Below, one piece after another: positions 47,650-64,000 of a stretch of DNA of 64,000 bases. The stretch spans positions 1,120,001 through 1,184,000 of the forward strand of contig CAVQYR010000001.1 in assembly GCA_963718235.1 (NCBI GenBank), given 5' to 3'. Made by a program: the position numbers and the translations under genes. This DNA is from an uncultured Actinomycetota bacterium. GTDB lineage: Bacteria > Actinomycetota > Actinomycetes > JAHEKZ01. Every line of letters begins with the position of its first letter. The stretch's first letter is position 1. The notes below the pieces were generated by a model, which was given only the letters and a program-made list of their open reading frames with translations, had not been told where the DNA came from and searched no databases.

Positions 47650-47860
47650 CCTCGTGGAAGGAGCAGGGGTCTCTCACAGTCAGCGAGGAAGACTCAGTGA
47701 TGACTGATTCCACGACTCACGTCTTGGACGACGGTGGCGCCGGTGAAGACGTGAGGTACTGGGTAGCGGACAGTCGAGAGTCGCAAACGGTCGTGGCGGT
47801 GTTCGAGTCGGTGGAGCGGTTGCCGTCGGGTCGTTTCCGGGCGCGGGTGATCGGTCCGGA
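47650..47860 (+). pseudogene. 5' remnant of an L5-type integrase (paralog of 60001)
   Basis: 28-bp identity to 59951-59978; encodes VERLPSGRFRARVIGP, then breaks off. Confidence 0.8.
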
Positions 47861-50843: not shown

Positions 50844-50912
50844 GGCACGACCGTAGCCCGTCGATGCGGGCCGGCTTGGTGCGCACGTGGGGCTTCGGAC
50901 CGGCGCTCGATG

Positions 50913-50957
50913 TGGAGCGGGTGACCGGGATAGAACCGGCATGGCCAGCTTGGAAGG
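50913..50957 (-). mobile_element. att site: 3' half of tRNA-Gly(TCC), copy 1
   Basis: CCTTCCAAGCTGGCCATGCCGGTTCTATCCCGGTCACCCGCTCCA; no tRNA 5' half. Confidence 0.85.
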
Positions 50958-51137
50958 ACCCTCAGGACCATCCACGTTCGTCCCTCAGAGTACGTCGCCG
51001 CAGGTCAGCGCGGTATGGCCATCCACCGGTATCCACCGAGATCGATCACTTTCCAGCCGCTTTGGGCACGCGAAGGGCACGGCGGGTCCTTGGTCGCCGC
51101 CGGCTGACAGGTGCGGATCTCAGGACTGGTGAGCGTC

Positions 51138-51410
51138 TCAGCGGTGGTCGACGTCAAGGACGATCACGCGGTGGTTCGCCTCGTGGATGCGGTAGCGGAC
51201 TCGGTACTCGCCGCGGCGGGCGCGCCACAGCCCTTCGAAGGGCGCGCGCAGCGGAGCCCCTACGACGCGCGGTCGTCGGCGGAGTGGTCCGCTGATGAAC
51301 TCCCAAGCCGCGAAAGCCGCGGCGGAAGGAAGCGTCTCGGTGAGTGCTCGACGCACCCCCGGGGCGAGGACGACGGTGTACGGGGGATCGTCTGGAAGCT
51401 CAGTTGTCAC
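51138..51410 (-). CDS. RelE/ParE toxin
   Basis: GLWRARRGEYRVRYRI...VDHR; overlaps the antitoxin gene. Confidence 0.88.
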   Translation of the reverse strand: MTTELPDDPPYTVVLAPGVRRALTETLPSAAAFAAWEFISGPLRRRPRVVGAPLRAPFEGLWRARRGEYRVRYRIHEANHRVIVLDVDHR

Positions 51411-51693
51411 GGTGCTCGCGCAGCCGCCGTTCGTCCATCAGCGCCGACATGTCCACGGCGGTGGTCACGTCGCCGGCCGCAACGGCAGCATCAGCGGCGT
51501 GGATCCGTTCCATCGCCGCGTCGTCTCGCAGTAGCTCGATGGTGGTCTCGAGGGACTCCAGATCTTCAGCCGACAGCAGCACCACATACTCGCGGCCGTT
51601 CCGAGTGACGTGGACGCGTTCGTGCGTCCGGTCGACCTCGTCGGCGATCTCCGAGAGGCGCGCCTTGACTTCGGACAAGGGAAGGGTACTCAT
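51400..51693 (-). CDS. Phd/YefM antitoxin
   Basis: LSEVKARLSE, VTRNGR, LESLETT. Confidence 0.92.
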   Translation of the reverse strand: MSTLPLSEVKARLSEIADEVDRTHERVHVTRNGREYVVLLSAEDLESLETTIELLRDDAAMERIHAADAAVAAGDVTTAVDMSALMDERRLREHRDN

Positions 51694-51711
51694 AGACCAG
51701 AATAGTAGTCT
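51694..51711 (-). promoter_or_regulatory. Toxin-antitoxin operator and leaderless -10 box
   Basis: AGAC-N10-GTCT inverted repeat containing TATTCT 5 nt before the ATG. Confidence 0.5.
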
Positions 51712-51851
51712 GCTGAGCTGGGCAAGGGCAACGATCCAAGGCCACATCGCGCGGACTTGTTGGGCGAGTTCTATGGGCACATCCGTGCGCTCATGATGTC
51801 GCTCGAGGCGGGTGCCAGACTGAGTCCCGAACGAAGCCCGGGAGGCCACGC

Positions 51852-52043
51852 GTGTACGAGTACAAGCCCCTTACAGAGCGAGACAGCAAGTTCCTGGGTC
51901 GATTCGACCCGAAATCGCTGGAGGCAGTGCTCAACGGATATTCCGCCGATGGGTGGCGAGTCGTCAGCGGCTTCCTCGCCATCGGCGCGGCTACCAGTCG
52001 GGAATGGCTCAGCCGGGGTGGTAGCGGAACGCGTACTTGGTAG
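51852..52043 (+). pseudogene. DUF4177-like small protein, 3' end disrupted
   Basis: YEYK...LEAVLN..GWRVV after a GGAGG RBS; runs into the Kelch gene end. Confidence 0.55.
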
Positions 52044-53160
52044 GGGTGGGTGATGCCGTGCTGGTCTGGGTCAGGCCGCCGGTGACCAGGATCGAGCCGT
52101 TGCGCAGTCGTACGGCTCCGAAGTTGGTCGAGGGTTTGGGCATCTTCGTCCACAGAACCCATCGACGTTGACCGGGACGCCAGAGAAAGCCGGTCGCCGT
52201 GGGTTGGAGGGCGCGGTTCAGGCCGCCCAGAACCAGTGGGCGGCCGCGAAGCGCCGCGACCTGCATGTCGCCACGGGCGGCCGGGAGCGGTGCGACTGGG
52301 CGCCAGGTATTGCTCACGGGGTTGAACTCCGCCACTGATCGGCTCACGCCCGTCTGCGCCGATCCTCCGGCGATGGCGAGTACGTGACCATTCGGGAGCC
52401 GGAACAACAGCGGTTCCTGCCCGCCACGGAACTGACCGGCAGGTCGCCATACATGCTGCTTCACCACGTACCGCTCAGCGGTGCGCAGGCGCGTGGTCGA
52501 ATCGAAGGCGTCGCCCGCAACGAGGATGTCACCGTTGGGTAGGCGAGCCGACGATCCGAAGACCCGGGGCTTCGACATCGGGTCAGTCCTGCGCCATCGG
52601 TTGGTCTTGGGGTTGAAGACTTCAGCTGTGGTCGAAGAGGTCGTGAAGTAGCCCCCGGCCACCAGAACTCGCCCGTCGGGAAGCAGTTCGGCAATCGCAC
52701 CGTCTCGGCGGTCGTTCATTGGTGCGGCATACGTCCAACGGTTCGTCACCGGATGGTAGATCTCCGCCGATCGCAACACCCGAGAGCCATCCGCGCCGCC
52801 CGCCACCAGCACCCGGCCGTCACGCAGAACGACGGCACTCGCGAAGCATCGCGCGCGGTGCATCCTGCTCGCAGGAGCCCAACTGTTGGTCACCGGGGAA
52901 TACAGGTCGGCGGAACGCTTGCAGCCGGAGACAGTCGCATCCCCACCGCCCGCAACCAGCACCCGCTCGTCGTGGAGCCGCACCGTGATCTGGTTCCATC
53001 GCGAATGTGGCATCGGCCCAACCGACACCCACGAACCGTGCGTCACACCTACCCGGACGGTCTGCGAGGCCGCCACGGAACCACTCGCCGGCGCGACAGA
53101 CCCCACGGCCAGCGCCGCGCAAGCCAGCAACGGAAGGGCAACCCCCCGAGCCCTGAACAT
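52009..53160 (-). CDS. Secreted Kelch-repeat beta-propeller protein
   Basis: Signal peptide; repeated DGRVLVAGG...AE.Y.P.TN.W. Confidence 0.9.
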   Translation of the reverse strand: MFRARGVALPLLACAALAVGSVAPASGSVAASQTVRVGVTHGSWVSVGPMPHSRWNQITVRLHDERVLVAGGGDATVSGCKRSADLYSPVTNSWAPASRMHRARCFASAVVLRDGRVLVAGGADGSRVLRSAEIYHPVTNRWTYAAPMNDRRDGAIAELLPDGRVLVAGGYFTTSSTTAEVFNPKTNRWRRTDPMSKPRVFGSSARLPNGDILVAGDAFDSTTRLRTAERYVVKQHVWRPAGQFRGGQEPLLFRLPNGHVLAIAGGSAQTGVSRSVAEFNPVSNTWRPVAPLPAARGDMQVAALRGRPLVLGGLNRALQPTATGFLWRPGQRRWVLWTKMPKPSTNFGAVRLRNGSILVTGGLTQTSTASPTPTKYAFRYHPG

Positions 53161-53346
53161 GTCGAATCTCCCTCCTACCCGTGGGCAGTCTCCACGGTGA
53201 CCGGTGAACGTCCCAGAGGCAGAGGTCCCTTGGCCGGCGAGCACTTGACAACAGACGGCACCGCCGCCGAACCAAGGCCGGCGCCCAGGGCCGGTTCCTG
53301 CTGCATGACTGCACTTCGGAGCGACATCTACAGACGGTGTCCTGTG

Positions 53347-53757
53347 CTACTGCGTTGTTCCGGGTCCGAGAGTCAGTTCGTGGCGCGACTCCCTGCCTCC
53401 CGTGCGACAGACGAACACATACCGACCCGCCGCCATCCTCACGTACCTTCCGTGGCCGCGAACAACTGTCGCATCGCGTTCCGTCCCGCTCTTGTCCACG
53501 ATCCGCGCCACAGGGCGCTTCGACGGCCAAGGGCCGTAGACCGTCAAGGTGGCCTTACCAGGCATCTCGCTCCAGAACAGGATGCCGTGGGTTCCCGCGG
53601 TGTACCCGTAGTCCTGCACCAGGCATCGGCCGTGGCGCAGGATGACTTCGATGCCTGCCATGTCAGGGGTTACCTCGTCGCCCATGCATCCCCCGAGCAC
53701 CAGCGCCACGAGTGGCCCCAGCGCTCGCCCGAGAGCACCTGCCCAACGCGTCTGCAT
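53347..53757 (-). CDS. Hypothetical lipoprotein
   Basis: GAAGAGG RBS; LVALVLGGC lipobox. Confidence 0.55.
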   Translation of the reverse strand: MQTRWAGALGRALGPLVALVLGGCMGDEVTPDMAGIEVILRHGRCLVQDYGYTAGTHGILFWSEMPGKATLTVYGPWPSKRPVARIVDKSGTERDATVVRGHGRYVRMAAGRYVFVCRTGGRESRHELTLGPGTTQ

Positions 53758-53994
53758 GGCCTCTTCTGACTGTTGCCGCCAGCCTCGCTCAGATGCCGCG
53801 GTGGAAGCCAGAGTCCAACGTCCATAGGTGACGTCGGGAGTCCGCCCTGCTCGCACTTCTCCTCGGCCCGGTGAAGGCCCCCGCCACGGCACATAGCCAC
53901 TACTTGCGTTCGTTCCCTAGCTCGCGCCTAATGCCGGATATCGCTCTTCCCGGGTGGCCTTTCGGGCGCGCTTCGGTTACGGGATCATGCTGGG

Positions 53995-54603
53995 GTGAAG
54001 TGGTCGACCGCGGTGGGGCATGTCCGCAGGTTGGCGGAGCAGTGCGCTGAGATGGCCGAGCTGCCTTCGAGCCTGCGCCTGCTGCGTGTCACCGAATTGT
54101 GGGCGGTCGGTGACGTGCTGGGTGCTCCGCGGGACTTGGACTGGGTGACGGCTGCGGTGTGCGTGGATCTCCCGGTCGGGCAGGTGCCGTGGATGTGTCG
54201 GCCCGTGGGTGCGGATCGTTGGGCTGAGATGACGCGGGCGTCGAAGAACCCGGTTGGCGTGTGGTGGCGCTCGACACACGCCCCGGTGTGGAACCACCAG
54301 ATCGTGCGCCCGGTGCTGATCTGGGACCAGGTGGCCGGCATCCGCGAGGAGGCGTTGACGGCGATCCGTGAGGGCCGCGGCTCAGCTGCGGGCCTGGCTG
54401 CACCGAGTGAGGAGGAGTGCGTGGCACGCATGGACGAGGAGCTGCAGACGAGCCTGGCGGAGTTGCAGTGCCGCACTGGGGAGTACGAGACGGAGCACAC
54501 GACCCGTCTCGGGGTCCGCGCCGACGCCCTGTTCGCCGCCGCGCAGGGGTATCTCGACGTCCTGGCCGCCCAGCAGCCGCCTCGGCTGGGTGACCAGCCC
54601 TGA
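53995..54603 (+). CDS. Conserved actinobacterial hypothetical protein (possible nucleotidyltransferase-like fold)
   Basis: Clean 202-aa ORF; LWAVGDVL..D pattern; PVWNH..VRP. Confidence 0.7.
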   Translation: MKWSTAVGHVRRLAEQCAEMAELPSSLRLLRVTELWAVGDVLGAPRDLDWVTAAVCVDLPVGQVPWMCRPVGADRWAEMTRASKNPVGVWWRSTHAPVWNHQIVRPVLIWDQVAGIREEALTAIREGRGSAAGLAAPSEEECVARMDEELQTSLAELQCRTGEYETEHTTRLGVRADALFAAAQGYLDVLAAQQPPRLGDQP

Positions 54604-54615
54604 CCTGGCGGCGGG

Positions 54616-55450
54616 TTATGCAGCTCCGGCGATGAAGGCGGCGACGATGTAGTTGGCGTGGCGGTCGAGGTTGCCGCCGGCTCGGTCGTAGCGGGTGGTG
54701 GTGCTGGGGTCGGCGTGGCGGGCGGCGATCTGGACGTCGCGTAGGGGGACGCCGGCGTCCAGTGCGGCGGCGACGTAGGCGTGGCGTAGGGCGTGGCAGC
54801 CGACCTTGTGGTCGATGCCGGCCTTCTTGGCCAGGCGGGCGACGATGCGGGCGGCGGCGTTGCGGTCCACCCGGTGCCCGGTGCGGGTGCGGATCAGCGG
54901 CCCGGTCAGGCGGTCGGCGGCGGCCAGGTCCAGGGTGCGGGCCACCGGGACGGGCAGCGGGATCAAGGCGGGTTTGTTGCCCTTGCCGATCACGTGCAGG
55001 GTGCGGCGGCCCCGCTCAGCGCCGAGGTCGTCGATGTTGACCCCGCACGCTTCGGACACCCGCAGCCCGAGCAGGCCGAGCAGGGTGATCAGCGCGGCCT
55101 CGTCCGGGCCGGCGGCGCGGGCGGTGGCGACCAGGGCTCCCAGCTGCATGCGGTCCAGCCCCAGGGCTTGGGACTCCTCTGGCACGTGGGGCCGGCGCAC
55201 GTACTCCGCTGGGGAGCGGTCCAGGTAGCCGTCGATCGCGGCGAACCGGTAGAACCCGACCACCGTCGAGAGCCGCCGGGCGGTGGTGGCAGGGGCGTAG
55301 CCGCGCTCTTCCTCCATCCACCGCACGTACAGCTCCACGTGCGGGCGGGTCATCGCGAACACCTCCATCTGCCGGGTCTGGCACCAGCCGATGCTCCCGG
55401 GTCCGCTTCGGCAGCGGCTCGGGACGGACCAGAGTCGCGGAATCGGACAC
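54616..55450 (-). pseudogene. Xer-like tyrosine recombinase with an N-terminal deletion/frameshift
   Basis: LRVSE, GKGNK, HALRH, ARH, TTRYD intact in 54616-55368; start MSDSATLVRPEP (GTG 55450, GGAGG RBS) is out of frame. Confidence 0.8.
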
Positions 55451-55631
55451 TGCGGACCTCCAGGAGAGACGGGAAAGGAAGCCCGTACTCATCCAGAAGG
55501 CGGCGCATCGGTCCAGCAATCCGGTTCGACAACCGAGGAAGAACCAGCATTAGGTGCGGTCGGGGATGGGGTCGACCTTGCGAGTTTGAGGCCGTGCCCG
55601 GGCTTCGTCGTGTTGTCATGGAGAGGTGAAG

Positions 55632-56120
55632 ATGCCCTCCCGCAGACGTCCTCTGGCTGCGGTGGCCGTCGTGGCCGTCATCGTGCTCGTGGCGGGAGGT
55701 TGGTTGCTCCGCCCAGCATTGGCACATCCCGGAGAGCACTTCGTGGCTGGCGGAGCGGGGTTGACGGGTTCGGTATCCCTGCAGCCGGGACTCATGGCGG
55801 GCGAGACGGCGTACGCCGATGCCAGCGGCTCATGTTTGTACGACGCTGGCAGGCACGTTGCTCTGGTGCCGGTGCAGGTCAAGGGGCGTGGCGAAGGAGC
55901 GATGACACTCCACGTCACCGCGACGGTCGCGAAGCAGGCGTCCGGTGACGAAGCCATCCAGACCGCTGACACTGACATCCCTTACCAAGCCTCGGCGCAC
56001 GGCCACATGGGGACGTGGATCCAGATCCCGTTGGACCAGGCAGCCTGGCAGGCCGGAGCGACCGACTGCCGGGTGCGCTGGACGATGACCGCCGGTGCCT
56101 GGTTTCCCAACGACGATTGA
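55632..56120 (+). CDS. Hypothetical exported or membrane-anchored protein
   Basis: GAGAGG RBS; RRR followed by a hydrophobic segment; Cys pair. Confidence 0.6.
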   Translation: MPSRRRPLAAVAVVAVIVLVAGGWLLRPALAHPGEHFVAGGAGLTGSVSLQPGLMAGETAYADASGSCLYDAGRHVALVPVQVKGRGEGAMTLHVTATVAKQASGDEAIQTADTDIPYQASAHGHMGTWIQIPLDQAAWQAGATDCRVRWTMTAGAWFPNDD

Positions 56121-56190
56121 CCACCCGGCCCAGCCCGTAAGTGCCGATAGGGAGTGGTCCGACACCGACCGAGCAGGCCCGTGTCACGGG

Positions 56191-56508
56191 CTAGGAACCG
56201 GGCATGTCCAGCATCTGCAAGATCTCGATCGAGCCGATCTGGTTGTGGGGGTGACCCGAGAGCACAGCTCGGACCGCATCCACGTCCTCGGCTTGGAGGA
56301 TCGAGTACCCGCCGACCCAGCCCGCCGGACCCGGGTCCTCATCGCTCGTCGGTTGGGTCGGGACGCCCCAGTCGACGAGAGCATCCCCAGCGGCCGCACC
56401 CCAAGCCATCCAGGCGTCCATGCTCGCCTGGCGCTCCTCGGGGGTCGTGCTCGCCATCTGCTCACCCATGGACATCGTGGAGCGGTAGAGCACAAGGAAC
56501 TTCTGCAT
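56191..56508 (-). CDS. YciI-like protein
   Basis: KFLVLY, AWMAW..LVDWG, GGYSILQA, HPH. Confidence 0.8.
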   Translation of the reverse strand: MQKFLVLYRSTMSMGEQMASTTPEERQASMDAWMAWGAAAGDALVDWGVPTQPTSDEDPGPAGWVGGYSILQAEDVDAVRAVLSGHPHNQIGSIEILQMLDMPGS

Positions 56509-56967
56509 GGCTTAGTCCTCTCGGTTGAGGCCCACGGCGAATGCCGGAGACCGTCAGCGTCGCCCAGCCGCGCCTTCATGGCAAGGGTCAACTGCAAGCA
56601 CTCAGGCGACGCGAGGCACCCTGCCGATGTGCCGTTAGGCATCATCCGCGTTGAGGGGTCGTCAGGCTCGACCTGGGGCGTCGTCGAGGTAACAGTCGGT
56701 GTGCCGGGAGATGGGCTTGAACGCGCCGAGGCTCTCCTTGCCGGGCGGCTGGTGGATGACCAGGGCCTCGCCCGCGGCGGGTCGTGCATAGGGCCGATCG
56801 CTGGTGCAGACCGAGCGCGTTGTCCGGCATCTGGCGCGGCTTACGAGCGCCTGGGGACCTATGGCCCAGTGAAGTCGGTCTGATTCGAGACGAGCATGGG
56901 TCGGGGCGGTCGCATGAGCCCGACAGTGTTGCCGCTTCTTCCGGAGCCTGGAAGGAGGTCGGTGTCG

Positions 56968-57921
56968 ATGTCCGTTAGCCACCATCTGACCCATCCTTCG
57001 GACACCTTGCTTGGTGCCGATCCGTGCCACGATGTCGAGAGCCTTTCGGCTGAGGTTGCCCTCTACGGTGTGCCTTGGGATGCCGGGAGCGTGAACATGC
57101 TTGTGGCACCGGGGACCCGCTTCGGTCCGACCGCACTTCGTCGCAACAACGTCAGACTTGGCGGGTGTGTCGCCGACGCACACATCATCGACCTGGAGAC
57201 AGGCAAGGAGCGGCTCGACGGATGCACCTTGGCCGACCTCGGTGATATCGACCTGATGCCATCGCTGGGAGCCGAAGAGAACTTCGAACGGATCACTGAG
57301 GTGGCCCGGCTGGTTGCTTCCCGTGACGCGTTGCCCGTCGCGGTTGGCGGCGATCACTCGATCAGCTTCCCCGCTGGTCGTGGAGCGATGTCCCGCTACG
57401 ACAGCGTCGACATCGTGCATCTCGACGCGCACGCAGACTTCGACGACGAGATTGGCGGCTCCAAACTGACTCATGGTTCAAACCTGCGACGGCTCTCTGA
57501 ACTGCCTAACGTTCGGTACATCACCGCCCTCGGGCTCCGTCACGTGTGGCGAACCGCGTACGAGCCGATGCTCGAGTACGGAGTGAAGTTCGCGTCATCT
57601 CGTCTGATGTTCCAGGAATCACCTACCGACATCGTCGGCCAGCTGGTCCCGAAAGCAGAGAACATCTACGTCAGCATCGACATCGACGTGCTCGACGCCT
57701 CCGTCGTCCCCGGAACCTCACTACCCGAACCCGGCGGGTTGACCTACAACATGCTCATCGAGACCCTCGCAGCCGTCGCCACGCGAGGCCGGATCATTGG
57801 GGTGGACATCGTCGAGATCAATCCGATGAACGACGCCAGCAATAGCTACTCGATGGCAGCGCGAGTCTCGTCGTGGGTCCTGTTTGAGTTCCTTTCTGCG
57901 ATCCGCGAGGCGCGCCTATAG
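56968..57921 (+). CDS. Ureohydrolase (agmatinase/arginase family)
   Basis: GVPWD, GTRFGP, GGDHS, DAHAD, SIDIDVLD, PEPGG, EINP. Confidence 0.92.
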   Translation: MSVSHHLTHPSDTLLGADPCHDVESLSAEVALYGVPWDAGSVNMLVAPGTRFGPTALRRNNVRLGGCVADAHIIDLETGKERLDGCTLADLGDIDLMPSLGAEENFERITEVARLVASRDALPVAVGGDHSISFPAGRGAMSRYDSVDIVHLDAHADFDDEIGGSKLTHGSNLRRLSELPNVRYITALGLRHVWRTAYEPMLEYGVKFASSRLMFQESPTDIVGQLVPKAENIYVSIDIDVLDASVVPGTSLPEPGGLTYNMLIETLAAVATRGRIIGVDIVEINPMNDASNSYSMAARVSSWVLFEFLSAIREARL

Positions 57922-57981
57922 TCGAGCCAAAGCCGACAGCCCCCAAGGAAGAGCTGAGGGCCGCACCGAGGTGCCGTTCGG

Positions 57982-58180
57982 CGCGGTCCGGTTGCACGTA
58001 TCGCTGGGTAGATCGCTGCTCGGCCAAGGACGATGCCCTATCGCCCTCGGCCGCTATGCCGAGGCCGCACCCGTCCTGCAGCAGGCGCGGATCATCTTCG
58101 AAGGACTCCACGCCACCCCCGCCCTCGCCCTCGCCGACATCGACAACCTCCTCGGCGAAGCCACCGCGCTGAGTTCCTGA
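57982..58180 (+). pseudogene. C-terminal fragment of a TPR-type protein
   Basis: GRSLLGQGRC..ALGRYAEAAPVLQQARIIFEGL; no start codon. Confidence 0.55.
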
Positions 58181-58243
58181 GCTGTCTGGGCGGGATCGAC
58201 CGGTGGCCTCGTTCCGTCCGTTCAACTGCCGATCGTGTGTTTC

Positions 58244-58440
58244 TCAGGCCGCTGAACCCCAGCGGGCAGACCGAAGCCCCCGGTACACCGACGCCCGACT
58301 CACCCCGAGCACCCGCGCGATGGTGGCGACGTCATGCTCACCGGACTCGTGCATCGCCTTCGCAGTGGCCAGCTTCTCCGCAGTCCACACGGTCGGCCGC
58401 CCACCCGTACGGACACGGGCCCGAGCCGCCCCAAACCAGC
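58244..58440 (-). pseudogene. C-terminal HTH remnant of a serine resolvase/invertase
   Basis: ARAR..GGRP ... IARVLGVSRASVYR. Confidence 0.75.
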
Positions 58441-58540
58441 ATGCGGGCGTTCGCGCTTCGGGTCCGCTCGGGCGGGGCGAAGGCCTCTGGGCACCGTCCA
58501 ACCTCGGGGAACATGATGAACCAAGAGCGGGAGGTTAGCC

Positions 58541-58888
58541 ATGAGCGCCCCAGAAGCCGAACGCCCGACCCGAATGCCCTGGCTTCGGCGAGCGTGGGTC
58601 GCCGTCGCCGTGATTCCACTTGTCTTCGTGCTTTCCAGTGCTGTGGGCTTCAGTCTGTACAAGGCGACGAACTCCCCGCGCGAGAACATCGACGCTTCCC
58701 TGTGGATGGACCTGTTCAGCGGCGTGCTGTCCGCCGCGATCTTCCTGGTGCCTTGCGCGGCGGCAGCGATCTACGGGAAGCGGGCGATCAGCGATGACGA
58801 CAGGCGCGGCTTGGTCCCTGCAGTCATCGGGGCACTGGCGGGTCTGGGGTACACGGTCGTCGCACTCGTTGCGCTGATTGCCGCCTAG
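58541..58888 (+). CDS. Small membrane protein (3 TM)
   Basis: GGAGG RBS; three hydrophobic segments. Confidence 0.7.
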   Translation: MSAPEAERPTRMPWLRRAWVAVAVIPLVFVLSSAVGFSLYKATNSPRENIDASLWMDLFSGVLSAAIFLVPCAAAAIYGKRAISDDDRRGLVPAVIGALAGLGYTVVALVALIAA

Positions 58889-59035
58889 TTGATCTGTTCA
58901 TGGACGCTGTTGACACGAGTTGAGACCTCCGGCGAGGTATTCACTCCCTCTTCCGCTGGGCAAGCACGCGACTGAACCGACCCATGTGCCATTCCAGGGC
59001 TGGTCTGATGGCGTGACGTGAAGCGGTTCTTGGTC

Positions 59036-59440
59036 TTAGAAGACGCCCGCGTGGTGCTCGGCCACCGGTAGGCCGGTGTCGCGCCAGGCCGCCAGGCCGC
59101 CGTCGATGCTGGCGACGCTTTGGTAGCCGATCTGGCTCAGGGTGACTGCGGCCAGGGCGGCTCGTCCCCCGGTGTTGCAGTAGACGATCACGCGTCGGGT
59201 CGGGTCCAAGCCCACCTGCAGGCTGGCCGGGAGTCGAGGGCCGCATTCTGGGTCGGCGACGAACTCCAATAGCCCCCGGGGCACCAGGACGGCCCCGGAG
59301 ATGTGGACCTCCGACTCGTTCGGTTCGCGGACGTCGACTAGCAGTGGCACACCGGTTGCCAACTCGTTCTGGGCGTCCTGGGGTGAGATGAGTTCGATGC
59401 TGGTCTTGGCTTGCTCCACCAGGTCACGGGTGGACTTCAT
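59036..59440 (-). CDS. Rhodanese-like protein
   Basis: VDVREP, PRGLLEF, YCNTGGRA, GGLAAW. Confidence 0.9.
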   Translation of the reverse strand: MKSTRDLVEQAKTSIELISPQDAQNELATGVPLLVDVREPNESEVHISGAVLVPRGLLEFVADPECGPRLPASLQVGLDPTRRVIVYCNTGGRAALAAVTLSQIGYQSVASIDGGLAAWRDTGLPVAEHHAGVF

Positions 59441-59823
59441 GGCGCACCACACCTTCTGTCGGAGGCGGTCCGGCCGACCTCACTGCCTCCAGGCTGCCCA
59501 GCCGCAACCCACCAGCGATAGGACCGATGGTCCGGACCTGGAACGGCTGTCCACCACCCCGAAGTGCCGATATGCAGCGCTCAGGTGGATTCCTGCGGCG
59601 CTCGTCTGGGCTCGCTTGGTCACCCGGGGCGGACAGCGACGGGCACTGCGTTGAGCGACGACGAAGGCGGTACTGCGAGCGTGGTGAGTGACCTTCGGGC
59701 TCTCCTAGTGACCGTTGGCTATTCCACGCTCCCGTTCAGCGATGAAGCCTCTGACGTGGAATGTGATGCCGCTGATTCCGCCCCGCACGTGGCGTCGATC
59801 GGCGTTTGCGCTGGTCAGGGATC

Positions 59824-59868
59824 TGGAGCGGGTGACCGGGATCGAACCGGCATGGCCAGCTTGGAAGG
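59824..59868 (-). mobile_element. att site: 3' half of tRNA-Gly(TCC), copy 2
   Basis: 44/45 identical to 50913-50957; lies next to the integrase; no tRNA 5' half. Confidence 0.88.
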
Positions 59869-60000
59869 GCGGGCTTGTCCGGGTCGTGTCCAAGTCGGTG
59901 ACCTGCAGTCCCTCGTCTTCAGGGGTGTTCTGCACACCTCCTTGTGGGGGCCTCGTGGAAGGAGCAGGGGTCTCTCACGGTCACCAAGGAGGACGAAGTG

Positions 60001-61407
60001 ATGAAGGACCCCACGATTCACGGCTGGGACGACGGCAAGCATCTCGCTGCAGCAACCGGCGGCGGGCATGACGAGCCTCCTTCTGGTCTCTCGGCTGTCC
60101 GGATTTCCGGGACGACGGGACTGACAGATGGAGGTGTGCACAATGCAGGCGAAGACCGAGGGCCTGGGCCGCGCAAGGCCGCCGGTCGCAGGCGGTCACG
60201 GCGGGTGTTCGGGACGGTGGAGCGGTTGCCGTCGGGTCGGTTCCGGGCTCGGGTGATCGGTCCGGATGGTCGGTATGTGTCGGCGCCGGCGACGTTCGCG
60301 AACCGGACGGATGCTTCGTTGTGGGTGGACGTGCAGCACGCCGACCTGGTTCGCGGCAGTTGGCGGGCGCCGGTCATGGTGTCGGCGTCACCATCGGTGG
60401 CCGTTTACGTGGCGCGGTGGATCGAGGAGCATCCGACCGCCAGGGAGTCGACCAAGGAGCTGTACCGGGGCCTGTTACGCACCTGCATCACCCCGACCAT
60501 GGGTCGCGCCTCGGTGGCGGGGCTGACTGCTGCGGCTGTGAGGCGCTAGCGCCACGCCCTGGGGGAGCGGCTGGCCGCAGACGCCGAACGCCGCCGCGCT
60601 GACCTGCAGACCAAGGGTCGGCAGGGGAGTGCGGCGTCGGTGCGGGACGGCGGCGCGAGGCAGGCGCAGGCGTACCGGTTGCTGCGGGCGGCGATGACCG
60701 CCGCGGTCGGTGATGGGCTGCTGCAGGCGAACCCGTGCACGATCCGCGGCGGCGCCGTCCCGCGTCGGGCGCTCGGCCGGTCTCGGCCGGTCACGGAGCG
60801 TCTGCTTTCCCCGGCCCAGGTCGCCGACGCGGCGGCAGCGATGCCCGCGAGGTATCGGGTGCTGGTGCTGATGGCGGCCTGGTCGGGATTGCGCCAAGGC
60901 GAGCTTCTCGCCCTGACCCGGGCCGACCTGGACCTGGATGCGCTCCCGGCGCGAGTGATGGTTCGCAAGGCGGTGCGCCGCACCGACACCGGCCAGGTGC
61001 GGGTCGATGTGCCTAAGACCGCGTCCTCGGTGCGCACGGTCACGTTGCCCGACCCGCTCACTGGGGCCCTACGGGGACATCTGGAGGAGTTCGTGGCCCT
61101 CGATCGTGAGGCATTGGTGTTCGCCACTCGTACCGGCACGACCCCGGCCCGGTCCAACCTCGGCGCCACCTGGCGCCGCGCCTGCATCAGCGCCGGCGTT
61201 CCACTGGTCCGGTTGCACGACCTACGCCACGTCGCCCAGGTGTTCGCTGCAGAGGCCGGCGCTACCCTGCCCGAGCTGATGGCCAGACTCGGCCACGCCA
61301 CCCCCGCCGCCGCACTGGTGTACCTGCACGCCCGGACCGACCGCGACCTGAAACTCACCCAAGCTCTGGCCACCGCGATGACCGACGCGGCCGGCGCCTC
61401 CGGCTAG
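60001..61407 (+). pseudogene. L5-type tyrosine integrase with in-frame TAG at 60547
   Basis: FGTVERLPSGRFRAR arm-binding domain; GLRQGE, PKT, HDLRH, LGH, Y; both ORF halves share one frame. Confidence 0.9.
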
Positions 61408-61502
61408 CCGAAGCTGACAACGATCCCTGATCAGTGAGCGAATAGTGAGGCGAGCGCGAACGGCACTTCGGTGCGCTCTTTGGGGGCCGCCGACGAGCCC
61501 CC

Positions 61503-61886
61503 TCAGGCGAGAGCAGCCGCATTGGCTGCCTGATCCTCCTGGATGGCCCAGCATTCGACGGCCTTGCCGTCTCGGACGTGCCAGACGAACACGGTTCGGC
61601 CTGAGAAGTGGCGCGGCTTGTCGAACCCGGCTTCTGTCATGACCACGACGTGGTCATCGTCGGCCAGGATCGCGTGGATCTCCTGGTGGAACGTCCCTTC
61701 GGTGATTTGCGCGAGCTTGCCGAAAAGGCCGAATACCTCGTCTCGCCCATGGAAGTCACCACTCAGCACGCTGGTTCCCGGTGCATGCCACGCAATGTCA
61801 TCGGAGAACAGCCCGGCGATGGTATCCATGTCGCCCTTGGCGAATGCCTCGAAGCCCGACTGGATCAACTCAGCGTTTGGGTGCAT
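61503..61886 (-). CDS. SnoaL/NTF2-like protein
   Basis: FEAFAKGD, SGDFHGRDEV, DGKAVE. Confidence 0.88.
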   Translation of the reverse strand: MHPNAELIQSGFEAFAKGDMDTIAGLFSDDIAWHAPGTSVLSGDFHGRDEVFGLFGKLAQITEGTFHQEIHAILADDDHVVVMTEAGFDKPRHFSGRTVFVWHVRDGKAVECWAIQEDQAANAAALA

Positions 61887-62019
61887 GTGCGGACTCCCCT
61901 CAAGGGGCCGCAGACGCAGCCCTTGGGCACGGTCTTACACCCTCCTCATGAGGCGGTCAACGGCTTCCTCTGCTCAGAGGGTGGCGTGCACCAGATCGGC
62001 ACATCGGTTCGGGTCCCGC

Positions 62020-62661
62020 CTAGGTCACCTTGAGGATGATGTCCTTCAACTCGATGAGAGCCGCAACCCGATAGGTCGCCGCTGAGAAGTCTTGTCCACT
62101 CGAGAAGTCGTTGTGGACAACGGCGCAGTCGATACCGGCCGCCACGGCCGAGGTCAGTCCTCTGGAGGAATCCTCGACCACCAACGTCTCTTCCTTGGTG
62201 GCTCCGAAGCGCTTCAAGCCGGTCAAGTACGGCTCCGGGTGCGGCTTGGCGTGCTCGTAGTCCTCGCGAACTAGGACGAAGTCCATGAACTTCCTGATCT
62301 GCCGCTTCTCATGGATGAGGTCGAAGTCGACCTTCTTTGCCGTTGTCACGATGGCCATATGGACGAACATCGACAACTCAGCAAGAGCCTCTGCGACACC
62401 ATCGATCTCAATGGCCTCGGTTCTCAGATACTCCTGGTAGTAGCGGTCGCGAACCTCACGCTGTCTGCTGATCGTCTGCTCATCGACGCCCGCGGCCCTG
62501 GCTTGCGCCCAAGTGCCCAGCCCCAGGTTCATATCGCGGAGGTAGCGGTCTCTTTCCAAGATCACACCGATGTCCTCTAGGGCGCGCTCCCCGGCTTTGA
62601 AGTACCAGAATTCGGTGTCGACAAGGACCCCGTCGTGGTCGAAGAGGACGTACTGCTTCAC
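62020..62661 (-). CDS. HAD-superfamily phosphatase
   Basis: FDHDGVLVDT, KPHPEPY, VEDS..G. Confidence 0.92.
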   Translation of the reverse strand: MKQYVLFDHDGVLVDTEFWYFKAGERALEDIGVILERDRYLRDMNLGLGTWAQARAAGVDEQTISRQREVRDRYYQEYLRTEAIEIDGVAEALAELSMFVHMAIVTTAKKVDFDLIHEKRQIRKFMDFVLVREDYEHAKPHPEPYLTGLKRFGATKEETLVVEDSSRGLTSAVAAGIDCAVVHNDFSSGQDFSAATYRVAALIELKDIILKVT

Positions 62662-62771
62662 TCCCGATTCCTTCCGCCATCCGCCCCAGGACACCTCAAC
62701 GGACGGACCGATGATGCCGTTTCATCGCCCCGTGAGGCGAGCCATAGCGGCACGTCGGCAGCGGAGCGCTC

Positions 62772-63059
62772 TCAGGCGTCGGCCTGGATCTCCACGACGC
62801 GCAGCCCCGCCCGCTCGATCCCAACCTCCGCCTGAGCCGGCGCGTTGGCGGTTACTGCCGCGAGGAACCCGCGTGCCTGCTCAAGGGTCTCGAAGACGAT
62901 GAACGTGACACTCACGTCCGGCTCGTCCACGTCGCCCGCCCAGAACCCCCGGACGAATCCTGGGTTCTGGCTCACACCCGCGACGAGCTTCGGCAGCAGC
63001 CCGGCCTGCTCCTCCCTCATCGAGTTGTCCATTCGCCACGTCCCGGCAACGGCAAACAT
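62772..63059 (-). CDS. Small dimeric alpha-beta barrel (ABM-like) protein
   Basis: GAGGGGAG RBS; PGFVRGFW, VFETLEQA. Confidence 0.7.
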   Translation of the reverse strand: MFAVAGTWRMDNSMREEQAGLLPKLVAGVSQNPGFVRGFWAGDVDEPDVSVTFIVFETLEQARGFLAAVTANAPAQAEVGIERAGLRVVEIQADA

Positions 63060-63266
63060 CAGACTCCCCTCTCGCGATGACGCCAGCAGGACTTGCCATT
63101 CTGCCGTGAGCGCGTGAAGGCGCTAGTGCCTTCTCTTGTCCGATTCATGCGAGAACGGCACGTGACGCGCTACGTCCGCGCTGGTTGCAGGGCGGTTAGT
63201 CTGGCCGAACGAGCCAACTCGGCTCCGCAGTCGTCAACGATACGACGAGCCACCCCGGGAGCACTC

Positions 63267-63731
63267 ATGAGCAGCTTCGACGCCACCAACGGCACCCGTG
63301 GTGCACGGCAGCCCGGCGGCGCCCTTATGGCGTGGTTCAACAAGCGCATGGCCAAGCGGATCCGCGGTGGCGGCGGCAAGGCGCTGGGCCTCGATCCGCT
63401 GCTGCTCATCACCCTGGGGGCCAAGTCGGGCCAAACCCGCGAGACGCCCGTCGCCCGCTTCGCCGGCCCTGACGGCTCCTGGTACGTCGTCGCCTCGGCC
63501 AACGGCGCCGCACGCAACCCGGCCTGGTACTACAACGTCGCCGCCCACCCAGACCAGATCCGCATCGTGATCGACGGGGTCGAGACACCGGTGACGGCGC
63601 AACAACTCCACGGCGACGACCGCGCAGAGGCCTGGAAAGCGATCACACAGGCTCAGGCCCGGTTCGCCAAGTACGAGACCAAGACTGACCGAGACATCCC
63701 AGTCATCCAGCTCACCCCACGTTCGGCCTAG
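63267..63731 (+). CDS. Deazaflavin-dependent nitroreductase (Ddn-like)
   Basis: GAKSGQTRETP, ASANG..NPAWYYN, TDRDIPV. Confidence 0.9.
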   Translation: MSSFDATNGTRGARQPGGALMAWFNKRMAKRIRGGGGKALGLDPLLLITLGAKSGQTRETPVARFAGPDGSWYVVASANGAARNPAWYYNVAAHPDQIRIVIDGVETPVTAQQLHGDDRAEAWKAITQAQARFAKYETKTDRDIPVIQLTPRSA

Positions 63732-63837
63732 ATCAGCCTCGTCCCCGAGTTCAACCGCCATGTCCCGCGAGCACCGCGTCAGAACGGCACATCGGGGCGG
63801 CTCGTAGCGGCAAGCGATCGGCGTATCTGCGACACGG

Positions 63838-64000
63838 CTACAGCGTCACCACTTCCTCCACCTCGCCCGTGGCCGTGTTGGTGATCCCGACGGACGCAAC
63901 GACGGAGTGGATCGGGTGATAGCCGAGCACGGCACCCATGGCGACCAGGACCTGCCGGGGGCCCAGCCGCTGCGTCAGCGTGCAATGCGGCACCCAGCGG
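63838..64000 (-). CDS. 2H phosphoesterase / 2'-5' RNA ligase family, 3' end only
   Basis: WVPHCTL motif; stop at 63838-63840. Confidence 0.6.
   Translation of the reverse strand, partial: RWVPHCTLTQRLGPRQVLVAMGAVLGYHPIHSVVASVGITNTATGEVEEVVTL

Follow-up and report, generated by a model that had tools for sequence, protein, structure and literature searches.

Why should one short motif recur, in runs of a single orientation, between accessory genes of unrelated function? We address this question for a window of 64,000 nucleotides (nt) from an uncultured Actinomycetota bacterium (GCA_963718235.1, contig CAVQYR010000001.1; here G000:C1:1120001-1184000), whose genome comprises 3.17 Mb in two contigs at 70% GC and is 95% complete. 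A first-pass annotation of the window had proposed that the motif is a tyrosine-recombinase-type site and that the genes between its copies are excisable cassettes. The motif, which we call T1, is a 13-mer read as CCGAW-GTGCCG-WT, in which indices count from 0 and GTGCCG occupies indices 5-10; positions beyond the right end of the window are given as window-equivalents. T1 is probably the core recombination site of a gene-cassette platform served by a Xer-like recombinase and carried in tRNA-targeting islands. The excisable-cassette proposal is supported by the rarity of the site, by homology breakpoints that fall on it and by changed cassette neighbours, all of them products of sequence comparison.

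A short motif concentrated in two arrays

The T1 motif is real, confirming the initial observation. All ten main and three weak copies lie where the first-pass annotation had placed them (on the minus strand its 16-mer begins 3 nt ahead of the 13-mer) and in the like-oriented runs it had described (minus at 51.8-53.9 kb, plus at 56.1-59.6 kb and minus at 61.5-63.8 kb). The strict pattern CCGAWGTGCCGWT matches the window exactly five times (56624+, 59559+, 61459-, 61995- and 63783-), far above chance, as had been claimed: 100 dinucleotide shuffles of the window averaged 0.02 matches and never exceeded 1; the looser CCGANGTGCCG has nine matches against 0.98 expected. Genome-wide, the strict 13-mer occurs eight times, with seven copies at C1:1176.6-1188.0 kb and one at C1:529574. 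When a T1 profile built from 48 sites in G000 and related genomes was run against the whole genome, 18 of the 19 top matches (E<0.1) fell within two arrays, so the motif is rare elsewhere; this test is partly circular because the profile took in the genome's own sites, a circularity from which the strict-pattern count is free. A two-mismatch search delimited array A, with about 20 sites from 51773 to window-equivalent 71368, and array B, with about 11 sites at C1:525.8-534.6 kb (locus L002, 5800-14650). Array A overruns the window end by about 7.4 kb, with nine further sites at window-equivalent 64418-71368, and no tyrosine recombinase was found within 20 kb of array B.

The sites keep a regular position relative to the genes. 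In the minus run at window-equivalent 61459-66428, seven of eight T1 sites lie 11-72 nt past a same-strand stop codon, and placement relative to stops is alike in the plus run (window-equivalent 67269-71368), whilst the final site of each run (61459, 59559 and window-equivalent 71368) has no same-strand gene beyond it. Neighbouring like-oriented sites are a median of 881 bp apart (quartiles 601 and 1405; 27 loci). The first-pass annotation had named a promoter operator at fixed distance as a finding that would speak against its proposal; no such arrangement is seen, as the sites follow stops and lie at variable distances from the next start.

The profile favours CCGCR upstream of T1, and the base directly 3' of the 13-mer is C in 30 of the 48 profile sites; because C predominates there, the arms are symmetric over at least GAW/WTC. 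An inverted CGGCA arm, absent from the first-pass description, lies 20-60 nt downstream of 28 of 105 sites compared with 6 of 105 in an upstream control, and peaks 22-31 nt past the 13-mer. This second arm is the reverse of T2 (CGAATGCCGGWT), a sister motif that amounts to T1 with one G moved, a one-base shift. Six sites folded as single strands gave z scores of -1.83 to +0.74 relative to shuffles, none being clearly more stable, and a comparison by eye of the variable T1 base with the second arm gave a mixed picture of pairing (several fits, three misfits and one C-G change). An Rfam search of the 20-kb island at a permissive threshold matched the tRNA alone.

Shared cassettes and breaks at GTGCCG

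The order to which the bacterium belongs holds 20 genomes in one family, and a broader scan at order rank added nothing. T1 arrays also occur in G001, G003, G005 and G006, which with the genome of the window (G000) span four genera; examples are 12 sites per 20 kb in G005:C5 and 10 sites in G003:C5. No T1 arrays were seen in the fifth genus or in 15 single-site loci, 13 of them from other families. The strict 13-mer was also found in 31 of 41 genomes of other families of the class (including the unpublished G025), compared with few for a reversed control, and was set aside there as chance or coding matches since the 15 loci held single sites and no arrays.

Pieces of array A, used as a 20-kb query, were found singly in other genomes. 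The SnoaL cassette (window 61470-61965) is 93% identical to a segment of G001:C67 that has different neighbours; likeness is lost inside the downstream T1 and, at the other end, about 31 nt past the upstream T1. Array B shares its rifampin ADP-ribosyltransferase (Arr) cassette with G006 and G001 (84-86% identity), where the surroundings differ, and its S51 peptidase cassette with G003 (81%), so that each is known from three contexts in all; array A retains a 256-bp remnant of the latter, T1 included, that is 91% identical. The YCII cassette has a 79% nt match in G001:C16 and a 74% match in G005:C5. Among loci around related recombinase genes, L033 and L037 have backbones that are 91-97% identical and differ by a 457-bp insert, bearing an open reading frame (ORF), at a T1. 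In three comparisons the shared sequence begins at index 5, the initial G of GTGCCG: 59564 with window-equivalent 71373, L035 with L038 and L013 with L052. The shuffled cassette order that the first-pass annotation had suggested looking for is therefore present, with the same cassettes standing beside different neighbours in different genomes.

Environmental sequence places the breaks at the same edges. Parts of 56000-64000 are contained in 20 runs, mostly sediment metagenomes, under 16 study codes. Contigs of four of these runs were aligned to the window at ≥90% likeness, and the figures that follow describe the 32 pieces listed out of 402. Among these listed pieces, 14 ends continue in sequence unlike the window, and 12 of the 14 lie inside a T1 13-mer. 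Of nine downstream-side matches, seven start at index 5 (56629 in X1 and X6, 57971 in X1 and X2, 61466, 62002 and 63790), one at index 3 and one at index 1; three upstream-side matches end at index 10 (62748, in X1 and X2) or, once, at index 12. Such a break was found at seven of the eight strong T1 sites in 56000-64000. Such a pattern is predicted if exchange takes place inside the invariant hexamer. Genome comparisons and metagenome contigs thus agree that homology ends at the sites, at the edges of GTGCCG, which fits the 5-6-5 phase of the original proposal.

One X1 contig reads to 63790 inside a T1, continues with CTAT and re-enters the window at 62776; the 1.0-kb unit 62776-63790, between two T1 sites, carries an ORF of 95 amino acids (aa) and the quinone reductase gene. 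This joint could represent either a circle or tandem copy of the unit, or a diverged second copy. The HAD cassette (62141-62674) has a depth near zero in all four runs whilst its neighbours are covered, a gap that we count as no evidence because no contig bridges it. No RNA dataset was listed as carrying sequence of 56000-64000.

The Xer-like recombinase and competing explanations

The recombinase gene of island 1 is broken. Of the 303 aa of its family it retains approximately residues 1-15 and residues 48-303, having lost residues ~16-47 with a change of frame; residues 48-303 are 87% identical to the family member P0006, and the N-terminal remnant lies in another frame. Full-length members, which are abundant in metagenomes, possess core-binding and catalytic domains and lack an arm-binding domain. 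The Phage_integrase catalytic domain with its conserved residues (R, K, H-x-x-R, H and Y, read by eye in the translation as LRVSE, GKGNK, HALRH and RHADP...TRY) places the protein in the tyrosine recombinase superfamily. P0006 scores 71 bits against the integron-integrase model TIGR02249 (cut-off 265) and 29.7 bits against NF011946 (cut-off 435), and the recombinase scores 125 bits against the XerD model (cut-off 329.6) and 120 bits against the XerC model (cut-off 335), each below its cut-off. The nearest solved structure is Escherichia coli XerD (1a0p, E 1e-17), with IntI4 a weak PDB match over residues 219-292 only. Four other tyrosine recombinases are encoded in the genome, none near array B, and separate XerC/D-type genes lie at C1:1704622 and C2:800775.

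The link between this family and T1 was observed across 55 loci around recombinase homologues. T1 matches of ≥11 bits occur in 17 of 18 loci with close homologues (≥70% identity over ≥100 residues) but in only 4 of 37 others. Orientation is outward from the recombinase gene for 47 of 54 sites; the seven exceptions all lie >5 kb off, and those of L052 fall outside the repeats of its island. In nine loci the recombinase gene stands between inverted repeats of 19-50 bp, each of which includes at least the TGCCGG core of T2. A DUF7711 gene adjoins the recombinase gene tail-to-tail here and in L034, L035, L039 and L052; it is enclosed by the inverted-repeat pair in L034, L035 and L052, and may be an accessory of the platform. 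In 20 loci with distant homologues (44-60% identity) no T1 sites were found, 18 had no flanking inverted repeats, and no co-varying site could be derived from them; in a plasmid collection the best recombinase relative reached only 44% identity. The first-pass annotation had named three candidate enzymes, both recombinase genes of the window and XerCD. The type at 54616, which gains from the sites that flank the gene in 17 of 18 close-homologue loci, is the likely enzyme of the T1 sites, whereas the integrase at 60001 loses ground, as its homologues (77% nt identity) in three genomes of the fifth, sister genus (L026-L028) have no T1 match of ≥9 bits nearby.

Related loci adjoin tRNA genes for Phe, Ser, Pro, Lys, Gly and Leu, several with direct repeats of 30-49 bp, and L052, L042 and L036 also carry a phage-type integrase. 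T2 with its extension (e.g., ATGCCGGTTCTTTCTCGG; at 55531-55553 and in L033, L037, L038 and L045) resembles, by eye, the T-arm of tRNA-Gly, ATGCCGGTTCGATCCCGG, a likeness that may hint at the origin of the site or be due to chance. In long-read metagenome-assembled genomes (MAGs), the recombinase loci L033, L036, L037, L040 and L041 lie at or near contig ends; two of these, L040 and L041, come from a single MAG and match at 96% over 7.7 kb. The platform may exist in several copies, or may vary so much that assemblies break there.

In the mechanism that we propose, the 303-aa Xer-like recombinase would bind the partly symmetric arms (GAW/WTC) and exchange strands inside the invariant GTGCCG, which would serve as the overlap region. 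Two direct T1 sites around a gene would permit its excision as a circle with one T1, and such a circle could insert at a resident T1. With successive insertions, mostly single-gene cassettes would accumulate as arrays to either side of the recombinase gene, with sites pointing outward and the gene itself bracketed by inverted copies of T2. A separate phage-type integrase would insert platform islands into the 3' half of tRNA genes, here tRNA-Gly(TCC), where 49 bp are duplicated and two islands stand in tandem. As both recombinases of the window are broken, the arrays of this copy are probably frozen, and recombination activity of the island in this genome is doubtful. We lean slightly towards a wider claim: that uncultured Actinomycetota possess a gene-capture platform whose origin is independent of integrons, and whose Xer-like recombinase moves single-gene cassettes into and out of a compact CCGAW-GTGCCG-WT core, builds two divergent arrays around its own gene and travels with them in tRNA-targeting islands.

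Several observations weigh against the cassette platform. An intact family recombinase was found in none of the five array-bearing genomes of the order, for G000 has a truncated copy, G005 a split one and G001 fragments, and no copy was found in G003 or G006, so the arrays persist in these genomes without it. G003 is 100% complete and has a 10-site array, yet encodes only XerC, XerD and one distant tyrosine recombinase. An arm of 5 bp is short for a tyrosine-recombinase site. In the SnoaL and S51 pairs, the next cassette becomes alike again only from ~31 nt past the 13-mer, beyond the second arm, a pattern that a single crossover point does not explain. In the metagenome alignments, the 24 loose ends listed out of 159 fall in the integrase gene, the tRNA repeat or cassette interiors rather than in T1, which is therefore a major class of break and not the sole class; in addition, runs X1, X2 and X6 may sample one population. 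Nine Pfam-supported genes share the strand of their sites and four are opposite (YCII, rhodanese, quinone reductase and NUDIX), a moderate bias, and a crude ORF strand test of 70 segments gave 41 same, 27 opposite and 2 without an ORF, using a caller that is rough at high GC.

Some of these points would suit use of T1 by host XerC/XerD, or by another recombinase acting in trans, in the manner of pdif modules and Xer-exploiting elements, with the Xer-like gene a passenger or a small module that favours the same sites. The array of G003, the broken state of every Xer-like gene copy in the order and the distance of array B from any tyrosine recombinase all fit this explanation, as do the discreteness of the recombinase unit, whose homology edges are sharp at the inverted repeat, and the GCCGATA common to T1 and the XerC-side arm of the candidate dif at C1:1739243. 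We nevertheless consider it unlikely: neither the XerD arm nor the central region of dif has an equivalent in T1, the T2 motif next to the gene is T1 shifted by one base, and a passenger would not be expected to be flanked so consistently by outward-pointing sites. The candidate (TTCGCCGATAA-TAGACA-TTATGTCATTT, C1:1739231-1739268, reverse strand) is one of only two matches in the genome to ATAA-N6-TTAT, the pattern on which its reading as dif rests. Distinctly less credible is a self-spreading palindromic repeat, similar to repetitive extragenic palindromes (REPs) or miniature inverted-repeat transposable elements, with shuffling a by-product of homologous or illegitimate recombination. Such spread could account for a 57-60-nt site unit that is 90% identical at 65617-65676 and 67984-68042 between unrelated flanking genes, and 84% identical in array B, as well as for the excess of downstream CGGCA arms. 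Unlike dispersed REPs, however, the sites are confined to two loci of the genome (18 of 19 best matches), which at 95% completeness has no match to the Y1 transposase family PF01797 of REP-associated tyrosine transposases (RAYTs); the six folded sites are no better than shuffles, and breaks at one fixed position of a 6-bp invariant involve too little sequence for RecA-type exchange.

That the arrays are scars of tandem tRNA-island integration by the phage-type integrase, with T1 and T2 decayed attachment sites, is very improbable. It would explain why two islands and three copies of a 49-bp segment stand at tRNA-Gly, why related loci adjoin six kinds of tRNA gene and in three cases include a phage-type integrase, and why extended T2 recalls a T-arm. 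T1, however, lies outside the 49-bp repeat and is missing beside the integrase homologues at L026-L028; tandem accretion yields direct repeats, whereas the sites are inverted across the recombinase gene, and the cassettes are gene-sized and devoid of integrases. We give a shade less credence still to T1 as a regulatory or transcription-end signal of accessory genes (an operator, or a stoperator-like element) whose breaks merely reflect a plastic island. A signal of this kind would be intergenic, transcription-oriented and near stop codons, as T1 is, and much of the cargo is detoxifying or antibiotic-modifying (mycothiol S-transferase/DinB, Arr, APH, GNAT and NUDIX) and could share a regulator, but it would leave unexplained the last site of each run, the variable distance to the next start, the loss of likeness at exact GTGCCG edges, the sites around the recombinase gene and the lack of an Rfam family match.

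Comparison with known systems and island anatomy

Integrons are the classic example of a system that stores and reshuffles single genes, and we regard the present system as their analogue, built on an enzyme of another clade and on another kind of site. Both comprise arrays of mostly single-gene cassettes with unrelated accessory functions, a site after the gene, gene-sized spacing and site families common to unrelated cassettes. In both, a tyrosine recombinase gene stands at the array head with cassettes pointing away, and arrays without a recombinase (array B and G003 here) have a parallel in clusters of attC sites lacking integron-integrases. In contrast to integrons, the enzyme here is not IntI (71 bits, far below the cut-off) and has 303 aa with no extra domain, the conserved site is a compact core of 13-16 bp rather than a folded attC of 57-141 nt, the crossover maps inside this core and upstream of its variable part, and arrays grow on both sides of the recombinase gene. 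Sites follow genes and cassettes recur in different arrays as in cassette arrays proper, without an IntI-type integrase, and T1 is probably not an attC-type site.

The pdif sites of Acinetobacter plasmids are 28-bp dif look-alikes (11-6-11) in alternating orientation that are used by host XerCD. Like these and other Xer-dependent elements, the present system has gene modules bounded by short Xer-type sites and an enzyme of a Xer-like clade. T1 differs from the candidate dif of its own genome, however, sharing only GCCGATA with it, stands in direct runs of three to eight and is tied to its own recombinase gene. The first-pass annotation had set the locus apart from attC integrons and canonical pdif modules, and this distinction holds for the dif-like site, the alternation and IntI. 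Tandem islands at tRNA genes are similar in that direct copies of a tRNA 3' half delimit the islands of the platform, two of which adjoin in tandem here; accretion explains placement, but not gene-sized units, 13-mer junctions or divergent arrays. Mycobacteriophage stoperators, repressor-binding sites in a fixed gene order, and start-associated sequences share with T1 a 13-bp asymmetric motif in many intergenic, transcription-oriented copies, whereas T1 coincides with breaks of likeness and stands among genes whose order changes from one genome to another.

A full-text search of the literature outside subscription journals and supplements found no description of such a system, nor does the available part of a recombinase classification describe one (PMC8138268). 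If the cassette platform is real, it would be a second, unrelated solution to cassette capture with a far simpler site, implying that capture evolved more than once. It would also be a functional counterpart of integrons in a phylum for which the available part of a survey records no complete integron (Actinobacteria; PMC4889954), and would offer a way of following gene flux among actinobacteria of soil and sediment. The cargo here includes members of antibiotic-modifying families (rifampin ADP-ribosyltransferase, APH-family kinase and GNAT) alongside detoxification enzymes, and the compact recombinase-and-site pair could, on the same condition, become a tool.

The features of the window are collected in Table 1. 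An intact tRNA-Gly(TCC) gene lies just past the window (window-equivalent 71633-71706, minus strand), and a 49-bp segment of it, spanning the anticodon loop through the 3' end, is found again at 59820-59868 and 50909-50957. These copies and the 305-bp repeat delimit two islands in tandem, island 1 (50957-59820) with the Xer-like recombinase and island 2 (59868-71629) with the phage-type integrase, the latter being the probable integrase of the tRNA-Gly island. In island 1 the T1 sites on either side of the recombinase gene point away from it, and the 305-bp repeat has an 88-89% match to the same island end in L052. By Pfam, array A carries Kelch, DUF7711, YCII, arginase family, rhodanese, SnoaL (two), HAD, F420H2-dependent quinone reductase, mycothiol S-transferase/DinB (two), NUDIX, methyltransferase, APH-family kinase and epimerase genes; array B carries beta-lactamase family, Zn-dehydrogenase, peptidase S51, rifampin ADP-ribosyltransferase (Arr-ms), HAD and GNAT genes. 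The quinone reductase gene probably starts later than 63093.

Table 1. Islands, T1 and T2 sites and genes at the right-hand end of the window (window coordinates; Pfam E-values in the last column).
Feature	Position	Strand	Remarks
49-bp copy of tRNA-Gly(TCC) 3' half	50909..50957	.	Left edge of island pair; 96% identical to 59820-59868 and window-equivalent 71629-71677
T1 site, degenerate CGGATGTGCCCAT	51773..51785	-	G005:C7 likeness begins exactly at site
Cassette gene, Kelch-repeat protein	52009..53244	-	Kelch_6, 1.4e-38
T1 site, degenerate CCGAAGTGCAGTC	53307..53319	-	28 nt past stop of 53347-53892 ORF
Weak T1-like site GCTATGTGCCGTG	53885..53897	-	
DUF7711 gene, convergent with recombinase gene	53995..54603	+	DUF7711, 1.8e-66
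Xer-like tyrosine recombinase, broken	54616..55450	-	Phage_integrase PF00589, 1.2e-18
Degenerate T2 repeat CTAATGCTGGTTCTTCCTCGGTT	55531..55553	-	Upstream of recombinase gene; matches repeats of intact homologues, e.g., CGAATGCCGGTTCTTTCTCGGTT in L038
T1 site CGTAAGTGCCGAT	56136..56148	+	
Cassette gene, YCII family, opposite its sites	56191..56508	-	YCII, 7.6e-07
T1 site, exact	56624..56636	+	Metagenome contig breaks at 56627, 56629, 56636
Cassette gene, arginase family	56896..57921	+	Arginase, 1.9e-60
T1 site CCGAGGTGCCGTT	57966..57978	+	45 nt past arginase stop; X1 and X2 contigs break at 57971
Weak T1-like site CCCATGTGCCATT	58981..58993	+	
Cassette gene, rhodanese, opposite its sites	59036..59452	-	Rhodanese, 1.8e-17
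T1 site, exact, last of island 1	59559..59571	+	305-bp repeat starts at 59564, first G of GTGCCG
305-bp repeat, tRNA-side island end	59564..59868	+	99% identical to window-equivalent 71373-71677; includes 49-bp tRNA-Gly copy 59820-59868
Phage-type tyrosine integrase, frameshifted near 60550	59944..61407	+	Phage_integrase, 6.6e-13; translations in two frames
T1 site, exact	61459..61471	-	32 nt past SnoaL stop; G001:C67 likeness ends within; X6 contig break 61466
Cassette gene, SnoaL-like	61503..61886	-	SnoaL_2, 4.1e-18
T1 site, exact	61995..62007	-	13 nt past HAD stop; X6 contig breaks at 62002
Cassette gene, HAD hydrolase	62020..62694	-	HAD_2, 4.6e-31
T1 site CCGACGTGCCGCT	62746..62758	-	14 nt past stop of 62772-63059 ORF; X1 and X2 contigs break at 62748
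Cassette gene, F420H2-dependent quinone reductase, opposite its sites	63093..63731	+	F420H2_quin_red, 1.6e-29, residues 85-208
Weak T1-like site TCACGTGCCGTTC	63153..63165	-	
T1 site, exact; array continues past window	63783..63795	-	X1 contig exits at 63790, re-enters at 62776

Two further observations concern the history of the islands and their cargo. Window 47650-47860, 3 kb left of the island edge, holds a 5' remnant of the integrase gene that is 85-89% nt identical to 59951-60266 and is perhaps the scar of an older island. At G000:C1:29449-30015 lies a chromosomal paralogue, 76% nt identical to a mycothiol S-transferase cassette (window-equivalent 64462-65025), suggesting that cassette genes may have been recruited from, or lost to, the core genome.

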